Shown one piece after another: positions 10,554 through 16,151 of a DNA stretch of 18,615 nucleotides. The stretch is from Candidatus Parcubacteria bacterium (GTDB taxonomy: Bacteria > Patescibacteriota > Minisyncoccia > Phycocordibacterales > UBA918). The translations under genes were made by a program, and so were the position numbers. Below the pieces are notes generated by a model that worked only from the letters and a program-made list of their open reading frames with translations, was not told where the DNA came from and did not search any database. Position 1 is the first letter of the stretch, and every line of letters begins with the position of its first letter. The stretch spans positions 1-18,615 of the forward strand of contig JBJOPW010000017.1 in NCBI GenBank assembly GCA_046050355.1, read 5' to 3'.

Positions 10554-11342
10554 ATGTCACTTATTGCTACTGCTCACGCTGCTGAATCAACCCATGGAGG
10601 AATCCACGTGGCGCTTGCTCCGTATGTGGTCGGACATGTCTTTGGTGTACCGATTACCTCAACGCTTATTACTGCCTGGGTGGGGATGCTTATCCTCACG
10701 GTAGTAGCCCTCCTGGTACGTCGTCGTCTCGCCCTTATTCCCGGCAAACTCCAGAGTGTCATGGAGATGATCGTCGGTGGTGTGTACGACTACATGGCTG
10801 ATGTACTCGAGAGCCGTACTTTGGCTCGTCGGTATTTCCCGGTGGTGATGACTATTTTCCTCTTTATCCTGACCTTGAACTGGTTTGGACTTTTCCCGGG
10901 GGTAACCTCCATTGGTCAGTACGTCGGCCACGGTGAAGAAACGCACTTTGTGCCATATCTCTACCCAGCGGCCACAGATCTCAATATCACGCTCGCGTTT
11001 GCGCTCATTGCCTTCTTTACGATTCAATTTTCGGGCATCGTCGCCATTGGTGCGTTTAAGTACGCCGGAAAGTTCATCAATTTCTCCTCACCACTCAATT
11101 TTGCGGTGGGTATTATCGAGCTCATTTCCGAAATTGCTCGTCTCATCTCATTCTCATTCCGACTCTTTGGAAACATCTTCGCCGGAAAGACGCTCCTTGT
11201 CGTGGTGATGTTCTTTGTACCGTACGTCGTACCAGTGCCAATTATGGCCTTTGAAGTCTTCGTCGGATTTATCCAAGCCTTTGTGTTTGCGATTTTGACG
11301 TTGTTCTTTATCAAGATTGCGACCGAAGAACCAGCACATTGA
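10554..11342 (+). CDS. atpB: F0F1 ATP synthase subunit a
   Basis: PGKLQ, NWFGLFPG, TDLNITLA, ISFSFRLFGNIFAG (essential Arg) and FIQAFVFAILT. ATG 10554 is preferred over TTG 10536. Confidence 0.97.
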   Translation: MSLIATAHAAESTHGGIHVALAPYVVGHVFGVPITSTLITAWVGMLILTVVALLVRRRLALIPGKLQSVMEMIVGGVYDYMADVLESRTLARRYFPVVMTIFLFILTLNWFGLFPGVTSIGQYVGHGEETHFVPYLYPAATDLNITLAFALIAFFTIQFSGIVAIGAFKYAGKFINFSSPLNFAVGIIELISEIARLISFSFRLFGNIFAGKTLLVVVMFFVPYVVPVPIMAFEVFVGFIQAFVFAILTLFFIKIATEEPAH

Positions 11343-11421
11343 CCCCGTTAGAAACTTCTCCACTTAGGTTTTAGAATAACTCAGAACCATACAACATGAG
11401 AGAAGAGGTTTCTAACGGGGT
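11342..11421. repeat. 80-bp element bounded by 18-bp inverted repeats (family A, copy 1)
   Basis: ACCCCGTTAGAAACTTCT (11342-11359) and AGAGGTTTCTAACGGGGT (11404-11421), one mismatch. It starts at the last base of the atpB stop. Confidence 0.85.
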
Positions 11422-11516
11422 GAACGGGTTTAATGGCCAATAACGAGCCCTGAAATAATTCAGAGTTCGCGTTGTCCATTAGAAGTAAAAGTTTATAAAA
11501 AATATTTCACACAAAT

Positions 11517-11780
11517 ATGACAGAAATTGAATTGGCTTTGGAAGCCGCAGAACTCAGTGCTGAAGCCGTAAAGTCTATCGCTATGGCGATTGCTATCGGT
11601 GTCGGTGTATTTGGTCCAGGTATCGGTATTGGTCTCCTCGTGTCTAAGGCACTTGAATCAATCGGCCGCAACCCAGAAGCCGCCAAGCAGGTAATGACAC
11701 CGATGTTCATCGGTATTGCCGCGGTAGAAGCGCTGGCGATTTTTGCACTCCTCGTCGCATTTGTCATCAAGTTCGCGTAA
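11517..11780 (+). CDS. atpE: F0F1 ATP synthase subunit c (H+-type signature)
   Basis: GPGIGIG, RNPE loop and carboxylate in VEALAIF. It lacks the Q...ES/T..Y Na+ signature. Confidence 0.97.
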
Positions 11781-11904
11781 AGATTTCTAAAATTGGCGAA
11801 CTGCTTTGTTGTTGCTCGAAAATTTTTATTCACTGTACACCTACGTACACCTCATAAAAATTTTCTCGCACGCCTCGCATTTCATCCAATTTTAAAAATC
11901 TTTA
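11778..11904. repeat. 127-bp long interrupted hairpin element (MITE-like or structured RNA)
   Basis: Outer IR 11778-11796/11886-11904 (18 of 19), inner perfect IR GAAAATTTTTAT/ATAAAAATTTTC (11818-11829/11854-11865), apical TGTAC/GTACA. Confidence 0.8.
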
Positions 11905-11951
11905 GTTGCCGTACGCTCGCACAATAGAATTATTAGTCTCACAAACACATC

Positions 11952-12401
11952 ATGGAAGAAATCATCAAAGCCTTTGGTATCGACGGACGACTCATCGTCA
12001 TCCAGGTCGTGAACTTCGCCATCCTCATGGGGATTTTGGGCTACTTCTTGTACAACCCAATTTTGCGTCTCCTTGAGGAACGTGAAGCCAAGATAAAGAA
12101 AGGTATCGAAGACGCTGAAGCTGCGGCCAAGGCCAAGGCACAAGCTGATGTCGAAAAGGCCGCGGTCCTCACTGTGGCTCATGGTGAAGCTAGTGAGATT
12201 AATGCGCGCGCGAAAGTAGCAGCTGATGCAAAAGCCGGCACCATCGTTGGTGAAGCCGAAGAGAAAGCTAACGCCATCGTGCGGAGTGCTGAACTGCGTG
12301 CCACTGAAGCTGCTGCCAAAATCCAAAAAGACGCTGAAGGAGAAATCGCGAAGACTGCTATTTTAGCAGTTGAGAAGATGCTCCGTGAGCGCACCTCATA
12401 A
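11952..12401 (+). CDS. atpF: F0F1 ATP synthase subunit b
   Basis: QVVNFAIL..LYNPI..LEERE, then an Ala/Glu/Lys coiled coil. Operon position fits. Confidence 0.95.
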   Translation: MEEIIKAFGIDGRLIVIQVVNFAILMGILGYFLYNPILRLLEEREAKIKKGIEDAEAAAKAKAQADVEKAAVLTVAHGEASEINARAKVAADAKAGTIVGEAEEKANAIVRSAELRATEAAAKIQKDAEGEIAKTAILAVEKMLRERTS

Positions 12402-12404
12402 TCT

Positions 12405-12782
12405 ATGCACGATTTTTACGTCACTGCGGTTGTAGAAAGTCTCAAAGCTGGTCACAAGCCATCCGAGGTTTTTCTCGGCCTCAAGCGTGTTCTGGCACGG
12501 CGTGGGCACGAACGTCTCTTGCCCCGGATTGTACGGACGCTTGAGCGCGAAGCGCTGCGTCGCACTGGCGCTGGCACCGCTACCCTCACGGTAGCAAAGG
12601 CCGCAGACGCCGATAGTGCAGTTGTGGTCTCCCTCCTCAAAGAGATGGCAGTTGGTGAGAAGCCAACGGTTATTATCGACGAGACCATCATAGGTGGTGC
12701 CAAGCTCCGCAGTGGCGACACCGAAATCGACGCAACCTACAAAACCACCCTTATTAACCTCTATCACACTATTACTAAGTAA
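12405..12782 (+). CDS. atpH: F0F1 ATP synthase subunit delta (short form)
   Basis: C-terminal DETIIGG...GDTEIDAT motif, located between atpF and atpA. Confidence 0.88.
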   Translation: MHDFYVTAVVESLKAGHKPSEVFLGLKRVLARRGHERLLPRIVRTLEREALRRTGAGTATLTVAKAADADSAVVVSLLKEMAVGEKPTVIIDETIIGGAKLRSGDTEIDATYKTTLINLYHTITK

Positions 12783-12794
12783 TTATTATTCTCT

Positions 12795-14681: not shown

Positions 14682-14713
14682 GAGTTTACTCCTGTCGGGT
14701 TGCGCTGTTTCTC

Positions 14714-14742
14714 AGAATAGCATATATATATCATAATGTCAA
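14714..14742 (-). promoter_or_regulatory. Near-consensus sigma70 promoter pointing antisense into the atpA-atpG gap
   Basis: TTGACA (14742-14737), 17 nt, TATTCT (14719-14714) with an extended TG. The -35 box abuts the atpG ATG. Confidence 0.7.
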
Positions 14743-14743
14743 T

Positions 14744-15649
14744 ATGGCTCTCAAACAAATTAAAAACAAAATAATCTCGACCAAAAAGACTGGCAAAGTG
14801 ACCAAGGCGATGGAGTCTGTCTCGGCGGTCAAAATGCGCAAGAGTCAGGAGCGCGCTTTTGCCAGTCGTCCGTATGTGCATGCTGCCATGCGTATCCTTT
14901 CGCGTGTCTCAAGTAGTGACGAGGCCCTCCAGCATCCACTCGCGCAAAAGCGCACGGCGGCGAAGCGTCTCGTGGTCATGGTGACGAGTGACAAAGGACT
15001 TGCTGGTAGTGTGAACAGTGCGGTCCTCAAGCAAGCCGACATCCTGCGTCGCAGTGGGGTGGAGTTTGATGTGATTGCGATTGGTCGCAAGGCGGTTGAG
15101 TACGCTGATCGTGAGGGCATCACGATTGTGGCGAAGTATATGAACGTGGCAGATGATGTCACGATTGCGGACGTGTACGCGATGGCGGACGTCGCCATGA
15201 GCGCGTTTAAGGGCACTGACACCTACGGTGAGGTAAATGTCATCTACCAAAACTTTATTTCGACCTTCGAACAGGCACCGACCCTCCGTCAGGTGTTGCC
15301 GCTCGACCCAGCCGAGATTCACTACATCATGCAGGGTATCAAGCCCAAGCATGGGAAGTTTAGTGACGAAGTGGTGGCAGGGGACAGTGTGGTCAATTAC
15401 ACCATTGAACCATCAGCCACTGCGGTCCTCGATGCGCTTATTCCACAGCTCGTGCAGATCCTTCTCTACCACGCACTCCTTGAGAGTAAGGCGTCTGAGC
15501 ACTCAGCTCGTATGGTGGCGATGAAGAACGCCACTGATAAGAGTAAGGAGGTGATTAAGGCGCTCACGATCAAGTTCAACAAAGCCCGCCAGGCAAAGAT
15601 TACGGCAGAAATTTCAGAAATCACAGCTGGTGTCGCCGCGATGGAGTAA
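14744..15649 (+). CDS. atpG: F0F1 ATP synthase subunit gamma
   Basis: KVTKAME.VSAVK, TSDKGLAG, SEHSARMVAMKNATD and NKARQAKITAEISEI. Confidence 0.99.
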   Translation: MALKQIKNKIISTKKTGKVTKAMESVSAVKMRKSQERAFASRPYVHAAMRILSRVSSSDEALQHPLAQKRTAAKRLVVMVTSDKGLAGSVNSAVLKQADILRRSGVEFDVIAIGRKAVEYADREGITIVAKYMNVADDVTIADVYAMADVAMSAFKGTDTYGEVNVIYQNFISTFEQAPTLRQVLPLDPAEIHYIMQGIKPKHGKFSDEVVAGDSVVNYTIEPSATAVLDALIPQLVQILLYHALLESKASEHSARMVAMKNATDKSKEVIKALTIKFNKARQAKITAEISEITAGVAAME

Positions 15650-15662
15650 CCTCTAAAATTAT

Positions 15663-15998
15663 ATGGAAAGTCGACGTCAAGAAAAATTTCAAAGTTCAGT
15701 TCGAACAGAAGCACAAATGAATGTGTTGCTAACAAATGCTATCGAACAATCAATTGGAGTGTTTTCTGTCGATTTACAACAATCCGAAATTGATGAACTT
15801 CTTGGTTTGGCTGCTGAGGCCCATACTGATCCCGTCGGAAAAATTAACGAACTGAGAAGAATTGCGCGTCAGTCAGGGCGTTCAGAACTAAAAGGAGTGG
15901 TTAATAACATAATACTCACAATATCTGAGCATCTAACCAAAGCAGAGCGAGAACGGTTTGATCGTTTAGGAAAGACTTTACTTGATGATGTTGAGTAG
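15663..15998 (+). CDS. Hypothetical helical protein inserted between atpG and atpD
   Basis: 111-aa ORF 13 nt after the atpG stop, visibly AT-richer than the atp genes. No recognised motif. Confidence 0.65.
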   Translation: MESRRQEKFQSSVRTEAQMNVLLTNAIEQSIGVFSVDLQQSEIDELLGLAAEAHTDPVGKINELRRIARQSGRSELKGVVNNIILTISEHLTKAERERFDRLGKTLLDDVE

Positions 15999-16001
15999 TT
16001 T

Positions 16002-16041
16002 CGAGAGGAAAATTTTGAAACTTTTCAAAATTTTCCTCTCG
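16002..16041. repeat. 40-bp inverted repeat
   Basis: CGAGAGGAAAATTTTGAAA-ct-TTTCAAAATTTTCCTCTCG: perfect 19-bp arms, 3 nt after the stop of 15663..15998. Confidence 0.9.
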
Positions 16042-16065
16042 GGATTACCGAGTTTCAAACATTCA

Positions 16066-16151
16066 ACCCGTTAGAAGTTAATCTTCAAAGCGGAATTATT
16101 ACAAAAAATTATCACCTTACCAAATTATGACAAACAAAACTTCTAACGGGT
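16066..16151. repeat. 86-bp element bounded by 14-bp inverted repeats (family A, copy 2), enclosing the atpD start
   Basis: ACCCGTTAGAAGTT (16066-16079) and AACTTCTAACGGGT (16138-16151), perfect match. Confidence 0.85.

Follow-up and report, generated by a model that had tools for sequence, protein, structure and literature searches.

The window examined in this study is the entire 18,615-nucleotide stretch of contig JBJOPW010000017.1 from Candidatus Parcubacteria bacterium (assembly GCA_046050355.1). It corresponds to contig C17 of the genome referred to here as G000, which comprises 940 kb in 17 contigs and has a G+C content of 48%. Among the atp genes of the window there are two short gene-less units, each enclosed by inverted repeats: copy 1 at positions 11343-11420, next to the end of atpB, and copy 2 at positions 16066-16151, at the start of atpD. 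The exact termini common to both copies are N-CCCGTTAGAA...TTCTAACGGG-N'. The original prediction, made from the letters of the window, had reported the two sites as pairs with shared termini, and both pairs are present where it placed them. The units belong to a real family of hairpin-forming elements, which is the subject of this report.

Copy 1 is a 78-nt unit with the ends C-CCCGTTAGAAAC ... GTTTCTAACGGG-G, to which no strand was assigned. It is positioned immediately 3' of the atpB stop codon, and is followed downstream by a conserved hairpin and atpE. The arms of copy 1 are ACCCCGTTAGAAAC (11342-11355) and GTTTCTAACGGGGT (11408-11421). The A at position 11342 in the left arm is the final base of the TGA stop codon of atpB, in which the original prediction had placed the beginning of the copy. 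The left flank TTGA (11339-11342, forward strand) includes the stop codon, and TGA is found again at 11421-11423 after the copy, forming an imperfect target duplication of three out of four nucleotides. The eight extra bases TGAACGGG (11421-11428, forward strand) on the 3' side of copy 1 look like the end of an arm, and they are missing from the empty sites of relatives, according to both the alignment and contig joints. The predicted fold of copy 1 together with 8-nt flanks has an energy of -37.2 kcal/mol.

Copy 2 is an 86-nt unit on the forward strand with the ends A-CCCGTTAGAAGTT ... AACTTCTAACGGG-T, and it occupies the place of the native leader and start codon of atpD. Its arms, ACCCGTTAGAAGTT (16066-16079) and AACTTCTAACGGGT (16138-16151), are perfect inverted repeats of 14 nt separated by 58 nt, and the energy of its predicted fold is -20.7 kcal/mol. 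The bases adjacent to the core are GAAAC/GTTTC in copy 1 and GAAGTT/AACTTC in copy 2. They differ between the copies and are complementary within each, which bears out the observation made in the original prediction. A capture of the native atpD leader between two arms was considered for copy 2, since the 3' half of its interior resembles this leader, but the sequence is of low complexity and A/T-rich, and the likeness may be due to chance. The sole in-frame ATG of the atpD reading frame, at 16127, falls within copy 2. This ATG and eight more codons (M T N K T S N G S, 16127-16153, forward strand) are read through the right arm of the copy into atpD, and the arm extends from the third base of codon 4 up to the first of codon 9 (K T S N G S). 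The reading frame thus agrees with the earlier proposal that the atpD start lies inside the unit and that the right arm is translated as codons 4-9. An alternative start of atpD is the in-frame GTG at 16155-16157 (forward strand), 3 nt past the right arm, roughly where members of the family normally rebuild a start codon.

The exact 9-mer CCGTTAGAA, which represents the half-site, occurs four times in the window, compared with about 0.14 expected for 18.6 kb, both strands, and equal base use. When one mismatch is allowed, the five occurrences compare with 3.85 expected, which is uninformative. The genome-wide count of exact half-sites is mildly raised, with 27 occurrences compared with 17 of the reversed 9-mer. 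Exact inverted pairs of half-sites 30-110 nt apart are found 11 times in G000, and never with the reversed pattern. The signal in G000 that exceeds chance is therefore the pairing of half-sites, and not their count alone. With at most two mismatches in total, there are 19 pairs in G000, 16 of which were kept as units. The pair at C6:45335 was dropped as an unrelated short hairpin, and in the pairs C12:14849-14963 and C17:11345-11599 a real arm is paired with a stray third half-site. The copies are spread over 12 contigs and are located within conserved operons. Each of the 16 units has a unique interior. The best blastn-short matches of the interiors to each other and to the rest of the genome are at most 16 nt long, with E values of at least 0.008, which are chance-level words; the interiors are unrelated, as the first reading of the window had it. 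A resemblance of the arm to the DNA uptake sequence of Neisseria was dropped because G000 contains only 27 half-sites, nearly all of them paired.

Both window copies differ between G000 and its relatives by presence or absence of the whole unit. Copy 1 is without counterpart in genomes G041 and G007, in which a clean junction leads from the end of atpB to the conserved downstream hairpin. Copy 2 is without counterpart in G007, G041, G047, and G018, in which a short A/T-rich leader is followed by ATG AGT ACA. The unit at C12:14849 is missing from G007. Assembled contigs from four runs of freshwater metagenomes, X1-X4, were also compared. X1 may be the source sample, and X2 and X3, which gave identical figures, are probably one data set filed twice. 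Copy 1 is absent from contigs of relatives in X1 and X4, and the site of copy 2 is bridged without the unit in contigs of X2/X3 and X4. The X4 contig differs from G000 in 10 of 348 and 7 of 140 letters at the flanks of copy 2. The comparison of these sequences indicates that the units are insertions.

The same contigs bear on the possibility, raised in the original prediction, that the half-sites are a recombination, invertible-site, or protein-binding pair, the last of which could be operators of a DNA-looping protein. With their inverted orientation, identical sequence, and distance of 65-90 bp, the half-sites could form such a pair. However, the contigs of the four runs contain only skip joints at the two units, with zero strand-changing joints, the G046 orthologs of the units keep the orientation of the interior relative to the gene, and the units have no linked recombinase. 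Two sites bound by a protein as double-stranded DNA leaves the compensated changes described below unexplained, because co-variation of adjacent bases is unexpected for such sites. The attC sites of integrons have the inverse core RYYYAAC on the left and the core GTTRRRY on the right, and form cassette arrays beside an integrase. The order GTTAGAA...TTCTAAC of the units is the reverse of this order, and there is no cassette array. An integron attC was therefore rejected as a candidate, given the reversed order and the scatter of the copies over 12 contigs in conserved operons, and a site pair of any of these kinds is almost certainly not the explanation.

The genome G046 contains 14 short copies and shares at least five units with G000 at orthologous places. 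In five orthologous pairs, the arms are identical in 106 of 110 bases, the interiors are 50-87% identical, and the flanks 67-83%. The ortholog of copy 2 in G046 has all 22 of 22 arm bases and 69% of its interior identical, and it retains the ATG and the same number of codons (M T T Q T S N G S). Because both G000 and G046 keep an in-frame ATG eight codons before S-V-G, the interior ATG at 16127, which would add eight residues to the protein, is most likely the start of atpD; the GTG at 16155 is a possible start. The G046 element at the site of copy 1 is flanked by a clean CTAG/ACTAG direct repeat, and its interior identity to copy 1 is only 50%. The two may be a single old insertion or separate ones. 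The unit at C2:1645 is also present in G007, with a strongly drifted interior and a left arm that is starting to decay. The lack of relatedness among the interiors can be attributed to the age of many of the copies, in which conservation is confined to the ends.

The ends of the elements have the properties of a hairpin. Among 204 distinct elements, both positions directly inside the core are mostly Watson-Crick pairs, in 194 and 195 cases, whereas independence of the two sides would predict 94 and 100. The pair is either G-C or A-T at the first of these positions, and either T-A or C-G at the second. The terminal N and N' are a Watson-Crick pair in 199 of the 204 elements, compared with 156 expected. 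Since these positions co-vary, the ends pair as a hairpin, either in single-stranded DNA or in RNA. Judged from the sequences, such co-variation would not be expected for fixed transposon termini or for duplex protein-binding sites.

Another possibility, also raised in the original prediction, is that the arms are kept as an RNA stem that loops out or adjoins translation starts, or lies between cistrons, and would thereby tune expression, for example the ratios of atp subunits. The compensated changes preserve the stem, the arms of the orthologous copies are better conserved than the interiors, the predicted folds are stable, and the units, being inside operons, would be co-transcribed with their neighbours. 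In contrast, the clean presence or absence of the units, together with the target duplications and the protein-coding parent described below, demonstrates a mobile DNA origin. Furthermore, no relationship exists among the host genes, which include those for GlyRS, L4, and adenylate kinase as well as atpD and pheT, and the unit is missing from this operon in close relatives. Searches against Rfam 15 gave no match at either window unit with E values up to 1, nor at eight loci with longer or two-hairpin forms with E values up to 0.1, which means only that the stem is uncatalogued. We therefore find it very unlikely that a function in RNA accounts for the family. Tuning of atpD by the RNA stem could be a side effect of copy 2, but it is not what defines the family.

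The paired half-sites extend far beyond G000. Exact arm pairs are present in 23 of 128 genomes of the genus, with no pairs in the reversed control. In the order, 101 of 401 genomes have them, representing 75 of 223 genera, with a maximum of 17 copies in a genome, and the reversed control is positive in one genome. Arm pairs were also found in at least 120 stretches of public contigs from many lineages of the Candidate Phyla Radiation (CPR), labelled as Nomura-, Kaiser-, Jorgensen-, Taylor-, Yanofsky-, Zambryski-, Vogel-, Moran-, Doudna-, and Kerfeldbacteria, Levyibacteriota, Kazan, and Saccharibacteria. A few bins with arm pairs carry the labels Omnitrophota, Planctomycetia, or Gammaproteobacteria, if the bin labels are taken as given. 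The occurrence elsewhere in Patescibacteria, on which the original prediction had made its proposal depend, is thus established for paired half-sites.

The termini of the family are 11-13-bp inverted repeats of the form N-CCCGTTAGA(A/G)..(C/T)TCTAACGGG-N'. They enclose either a variable non-coding interior, in gene-less members of 58-125 nt, or one tiny gene, in a full form of about 275 bp. Among the gene-less members of other genomes, one form is 107-125 nt long and has a 4-nt bulge and a second G+C-rich stem, and another is 58-64 nt long with two internal hairpins. At two loci in genomes of the order, G415:C22:1351-1455 and G186:C21:15890-15994, the arms of the family surround what appears from the sequence to be a complete tRNA gene. 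In the region G189:C10:3500-8000, four elements are crowded into 2 kb, and a TCAA duplication is common to three of these. In the region G418:C2:10700-14600, two arms 3.4 kb apart surround an 84-aa GIY-YIG open reading frame (ORF) and ORFs resembling translated rRNA. This arm pair may be related to the non-intron GIY-YIG insertions reported from rRNA genes of CPR in the available part of PMC11270868.

When the flanks are aligned on the core, the termini read T-CCCG...CGGG-A, with a perfect 4-nt direct repeat directly outside. Of 49 copies from 16 other genomes, 23 have this perfect duplication, as have 92 of 136 copies from public contigs, a set that is silent on the terminal base because it was selected with T...A ends, at a gap of 80-110 nt. 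Oriented to the neighbouring gene, the duplications are TGAA (44 cases), TGGA (13), TGAG (12), TGCG (5), and others, and the base preceding the left duplicate is A in 84 of the 92. The usual target thus consists of the TG of a start codon and the next two bases, and the last A of the element together with the duplicated TGNN restores the ATG of the host gene. The codon formed by this last A and the duplicate is ATG in 118 of the 136 public-contig copies. The rebuilt ATG opens an ORF that is at least 100 aa long or runs off the locus in 107 of these copies, and in 31 of the 49 copies from other genomes. The position at the start codon is exact in about 80% of copies. In G000, units rebuild the starts of the genes for GlyRS, L4, and adenylate kinase, and of one gene on C12, and a fifth unit has TTG at the rebuilt position. 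In the units at C3:35949 and on C13, and in copy 2, an in-frame interior ATG reads through the arm as (T/I)-S-N-G.

The full form encodes a GIY-YIG nuclease. Arm pairs 180-330 nt apart are present in 9 of the 401 genomes of the order. Genome G145 has a unit of 273 nt with these arms, and its 95-aa product matches the Pfam GIY-YIG family with 60.9 bits. The reading frame of this protein begins at the duplicated host ATG, gives N-P-V-R in the left arm and L-T-G in the right one, and terminates with the TGA contained in the rebuilt ATGA. The genes of full forms encode 85-95 residues. Their start is either the host ATG in its upstream copy or an ATG that lies just within the element. The frame crosses both arms, and ends with the TGA in the rebuilt ATGA or with a TAA in the arm. 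The sole full copy of G000 (C6:20546-20822) is intact and located between the stop codon (TAG) of pheS and the start of pheT, and its gene (C6:20561-20821) encodes a protein of 87 aa (PF01541 GIY-YIG, 52.2 bits). Its arms, AGTCCGTTAGAGAT/ATCTCTAACGGACT, belong to a GAG variant, because of which the copy was missed by exact-word searches. On the 3' side of its right arm, CTGAAT is followed by ATGAAA, which resembles two adjacent copies of a TGAA target. The G046 ortholog of this nuclease is 95% identical. No nuclease homolog with an E value of up to 1e-8 was found in G007, which has one copy of the element and is 99% complete. The solved structures nearest to the nuclease are those of the UPF0213 proteins 1zg2 and 1ywl. 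In NCBIfam, no family scores above its cut-off, and Pfam yields the general GIY-YIG domain alone. The model of group I intron endonucleases scores 24.5 bits, which is below its cut-off.

Homologs of the nuclease with E values of up to 1e-12 are present in 175 of the 401 genomes of the order, often in multiple copies, some of which contain stop codons. Among the best 30 homolog loci, 23 have both arms, 17 end in a TGA within ATGA, and most are flanked by repeats of the ATGAA type. The original prediction had considered that a recombinase or a nuclease might accompany the sites. No recombinase is linked to the units, but a homolog of the GIY-YIG nuclease is present in 77 of 101 genomes with short elements, compared with 98 of 300 without them, and in 25 of 29 genomes with at least four short copies.

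The gene-less copies may retain features of the coding form. The frame that begins at the duplicated ATG is free of stop codons through the interior in 49 of 137 gene-less copies; for the other five frames the number is 15-20 of 137, and among shuffled sequences the share is 11%. It is possible that this open upstream frame is partly a leftover of the nuclease gene rather than selected. Of 89 upstream frames, 27 end with the arm TAA 4 nt before the ATG of the gene, 8 with an overlapping TGA, and 53 in the interior, and a single one is fused to the host gene.

The genome G000 also encodes four HUH (Y1) proteins, at C7:24262-24723, C2:111284-111997, C1:5772-6458, and C1:69059-69706. One of them is of the IS200 type and three are RAYT-like, a notable number for a genome of 0.94 Mb without repeats of the size of an insertion sequence (IS). 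The units could accordingly be REPIN-like doublets moved by one of these tyrosine transposases, and their overall form resembles REPINs, which are hairpin-forming inverted doublets with fast-evolving spacers and compensated changes. However, no convincing arm, allowing for at most three mismatches, is found within 1.2 kb of any of the four PF01797 genes, and the scores of the RAYT-like proteins, 37-42 bits, are below the cut-off of 80. Moreover, transposition of single strands by HUH enzymes does not create target duplications, and 92 of the 136 public-contig copies have one. We regard the mobilisation of the units by an HUH enzyme as highly improbable.

Taken together, the evidence makes it very probable that both sites in the window are non-autonomous copies, similar to MITEs (miniature inverted-repeat transposable elements), of a mobile element family of CPR/Patescibacteria. 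A typical MITE had been ruled out in the original prediction. This exclusion was wrong because the units have inverted termini, differ between relatives by whole-unit insertions or deletions, are associated with 4-nt target duplications, and share their ends with a coding parent, and because unrelated interiors fit old copies. The window copies are best read as old or rearranged members of the family. Copy 1 appears to be an atypical landing on the atpB stop codon. Copy 2, which is shared with G046, appears to be old; it lies at the atpD start but has lost the rebuilt ATG, so that translation would begin at the interior ATG or at the GTG at 16155.

The form of the family is that of a mobile element with inverted termini and target duplication. 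We see an even chance that it merits the rank of a new class, which hinges on the nuclease being the mobilising enzyme. In that class, an autonomous form of about 275 bp would encode a GIY-YIG protein of about 90 residues as its sole gene, in place of an enzyme of the DDE, HUH, serine, tyrosine, or Cas1 type. It would hijack the start codon of the host gene and hand translation back at ATGA, and its gene-less copies would be moved in trans via a hairpin in single-stranded DNA. The odds for and against this complete description are balanced. By analogy with the Ssn nucleases, the enzyme may recognise the arm hairpin in single-stranded DNA and mobilise full and gene-less copies in trans. Insertion may then proceed through a 4-nt staggered break and repair or ligation by the host. 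After insertion, the native leader would drive initiation at the upstream ATG, and ribosomes would stop at the rebuilt ATG or 4 nt before it, and restart. Alternatively, a new in-frame ATG may evolve inside the unit and keep the host gene expressed. The excess of stop-free upstream frames (49 of 137) and the single fusion among 89 frames support such a stop and restart of ribosomes near the rebuilt ATG.

Several observations weigh against this interpretation. GIY-YIG enzymes are hydrolytic nucleases, and we know of no joining activity in them, so that insertion would need host functions or an extra step. Neither window copy has a perfect 4-nt duplication: copy 1 has the TGA repeat only, and copy 2 has none. 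In copy 1, the position on a stop codon and the eight extra bases do not display the hallmark of the family cleanly, and copy 2 is not a simple insertion, as it stands in for the first three codons of atpD and some 34 nt of its native leader. Perfect duplications are present in 5 of the 16 copies in G000 and missing from the other 11. A genus-specific subtype, TTYAG-CCCG...CGGG-CTRAA, has inverted and not direct flanks, and the selection of the public-contig set favours longer forms. Footprints of excision of the form A-TGNN-TA-TGNN occur 8 times in G000, compared with 5-29 times for other middle dinucleotides, and are thus not in excess. The odds ratio of 6.6 for the co-occurrence of nuclease and short elements overstates the independence of the observations, because the genomes are related. 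In addition, 98 genomes contain the nuclease and no elements with exact arms, and 24 of the 101 genomes with short elements lack a homolog detectable by this query.

These 24 genomes would be accounted for if the units were MITEs of an ordinary DDE-type transposase, and the GIY-YIG gene a passenger or addiction gene in some of the copies. Inverted termini and a target duplication of fixed 4-nt length, which is a signature of staggered cuts by DDE enzymes, also agree with this explanation. However, the half-site maps of five high-copy genomes and five regions show no transposase between arms, and G000 contains neither IS-sized repeats nor a match to PF01609, the one DDE family of Pfam that was searched. 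The terminal base pair varies and co-varies, unlike the fixed termini of DDE elements. The nuclease gene starts in the duplicated ATG or left arm and stops in the right arm or ATGA at 17-23 of the 30 loci, and a frame built into the ends of the element is not expected of a passenger. A DDE transposase therefore seems an unlikely driver of the family.

If the nuclease moves the units, the full form would be the smallest self-contained cellular mobile element known to us, and no earlier transposon-like element of bacteria would have had a GIY-YIG nuclease as its driver. Landing on start codons, rebuilding of the ATG, and borrowing of host initiation would constitute a strategy of harmlessness that suits genomes with almost no non-coding DNA. 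The element alters the true start codons and N-termini of essential genes, which in G000 are those of atpD, GlyRS, L4, and adenylate kinase. Since it changes starts and fills operon junctions, gene callers and predictions of operons and RNA motifs in CPR will be systematically misled. A short nuclease specific for the sequence and structure of single-stranded DNA, with a known hairpin site, would be a potential tool, as is argued for Ssn (PMC11893778).

The window contains other repeats and hairpins near the two copies. Between copy 1 and atpE (11431-11485), there is a conserved hairpin with the outer stem TAATGG..CCATTA and a variable inner stem, in which compensated changes are found among G000, G046, G041, and G007. 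A role as a leader of the atp operon or in its processing is possible. An unrelated repeat of about 125 nt with palindromic ends occupies positions 11778-11904 between atpE and atpF. It has 19-nt arms, TAAAGATTTCTAAAATTGG / CCAATTTTAAAAATCTTTA, occurs in G000 also at C4:71025, C10:10506, C16:11719, C1:92328, and C16:5915, and has dozens of matches of 70-80% identity in genomes of the genus. The spacer between atpG and atpD contains an insert (15663-16048) composed of a 111-aa ORF and a hairpin with 26-nt arms (15995-16048). G018 has a stretch that is 69% similar, G046 and G047 have different ORFs at this place, and G007 and G041 have none, so that small genes seem to land repeatedly in this spacer. 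Just upstream of the atpD leader (16037-16061), a small hairpin, CTCRG-(T/G)A(G/T)TA-CYGAG, is followed by TTTCAAACA. It is common to G000, G046, G007, G041, and G047, and exhibits compensated A-T/G-C changes.

Perfect palindromes at 906-943 and 18443-18476 have the common core CCAATACTTCATTT|AAATGAAGTATTGG and represent another family of repeated hairpins. Other long perfect hairpins of the window are located at 848-887 and 4169-4218. Several contig ends of G000 share sequences of 128-333 nt with 89-99% identity: C8:45548-45675, C9:1-127, C3:1-128, and C13:1-133, as well as C11:1-332 and C14:1-331. These ends are probably parts of an unassembled multi-copy repeat that breaks the assembly.

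The suggestion in the original prediction that the family is undescribed held in the literature that was searched. Full-text searches on MITEs, start codons, and repeats in CPR, on the motif, and on GIY-YIG together with CPR or transposons gave no description of the element, although the supplementary tables of Ssn homologs may include CPR. Among the matches listed, none of the papers that carry the motif is on CPR. The available part of PMC12455944 mentions GIY-YIG genes in CPR but not this element, and that of PMC11270868 describes non-intron insertions encoding GIY-YIG proteins in rRNA genes of CPR, again with no mention of this element.

The family has inverted termini, a target duplication, and a small non-coding body, which are the features of classical DDE-MITEs. 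Correia/CREE elements of Neisseria, RUP, and ERIC are bacterial MITEs that are co-transcribed with neighbouring genes. They resemble the present units in being shorter than 300 bp and non-coding, with inverted termini that fold into a long hairpin, a short target duplication, sites between genes or within operons, and a presence that varies between relatives. The present family differs from MITEs of the Correia type in that its target is a start codon and the ATG is rebuilt from the last base of the element. Its parent of about 275 bp contains a GIY-YIG nuclease as the only gene instead of a DDE transposase. Furthermore, the terminal pair and adjacent stem positions co-vary, and the termini are conserved across a superphylum.

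REPIN/REP elements with RAYT transposases were reportedly described by Nunvar in 2010, Bertels and Rainey in 2011, and Ton-Hoang in 2012. The likeness to this system includes hairpin doublets, conserved arms with a fast-evolving spacer, compensated changes, a single-copy enzyme gene, and long persistence. In contrast to REPINs, the present elements have target duplications, and the partner gene is located inside the element and encodes a GIY-YIG nuclease. The selfish GIY-YIG gene at a precise position of a host gene is also reminiscent of homing endonucleases of the I-TevI type. Here, however, there is no intron, the element has inverted termini and target duplications and is found at many different genes, and the protein of about 90 residues is without the DNA-binding domain of I-TevI. 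The GIY-YIG insertions in rRNA genes of CPR are likewise located at a precise position in a host gene region, as described in the available text of PMC11270868.

In its working, the family is most like the Correia-type elements and the system of the Ssn nucleases, the tested members of which cut single-stranded DNA beside hairpin NTS/SRM repeats (Chenal et al. 2025, PMC11893778). The published SRM pattern has seven matches in G000, none of them within 30 nt of any element or nuclease gene. The available text of PMC11893778 contains no target duplications, insertion at start codons, frame hijack, or mention of Patescibacteria. According to the same text, each Ssn repeat forms its own short hairpin, whereas the arms of the present family pair across the gene. 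In both systems, as far as PMC11893778 is available, a small single-domain GIY-YIG gene is bracketed by its own hairpin-forming repeat, which has many dispersed copies. The Ssn-like layout, in which arms flank the GIY-YIG gene on both sides, is present at 23 of the 30 homolog loci, and in the available part of PMC11893778 the authors liken their NTS-ssnA-NTS arrangement to an insertion sequence.

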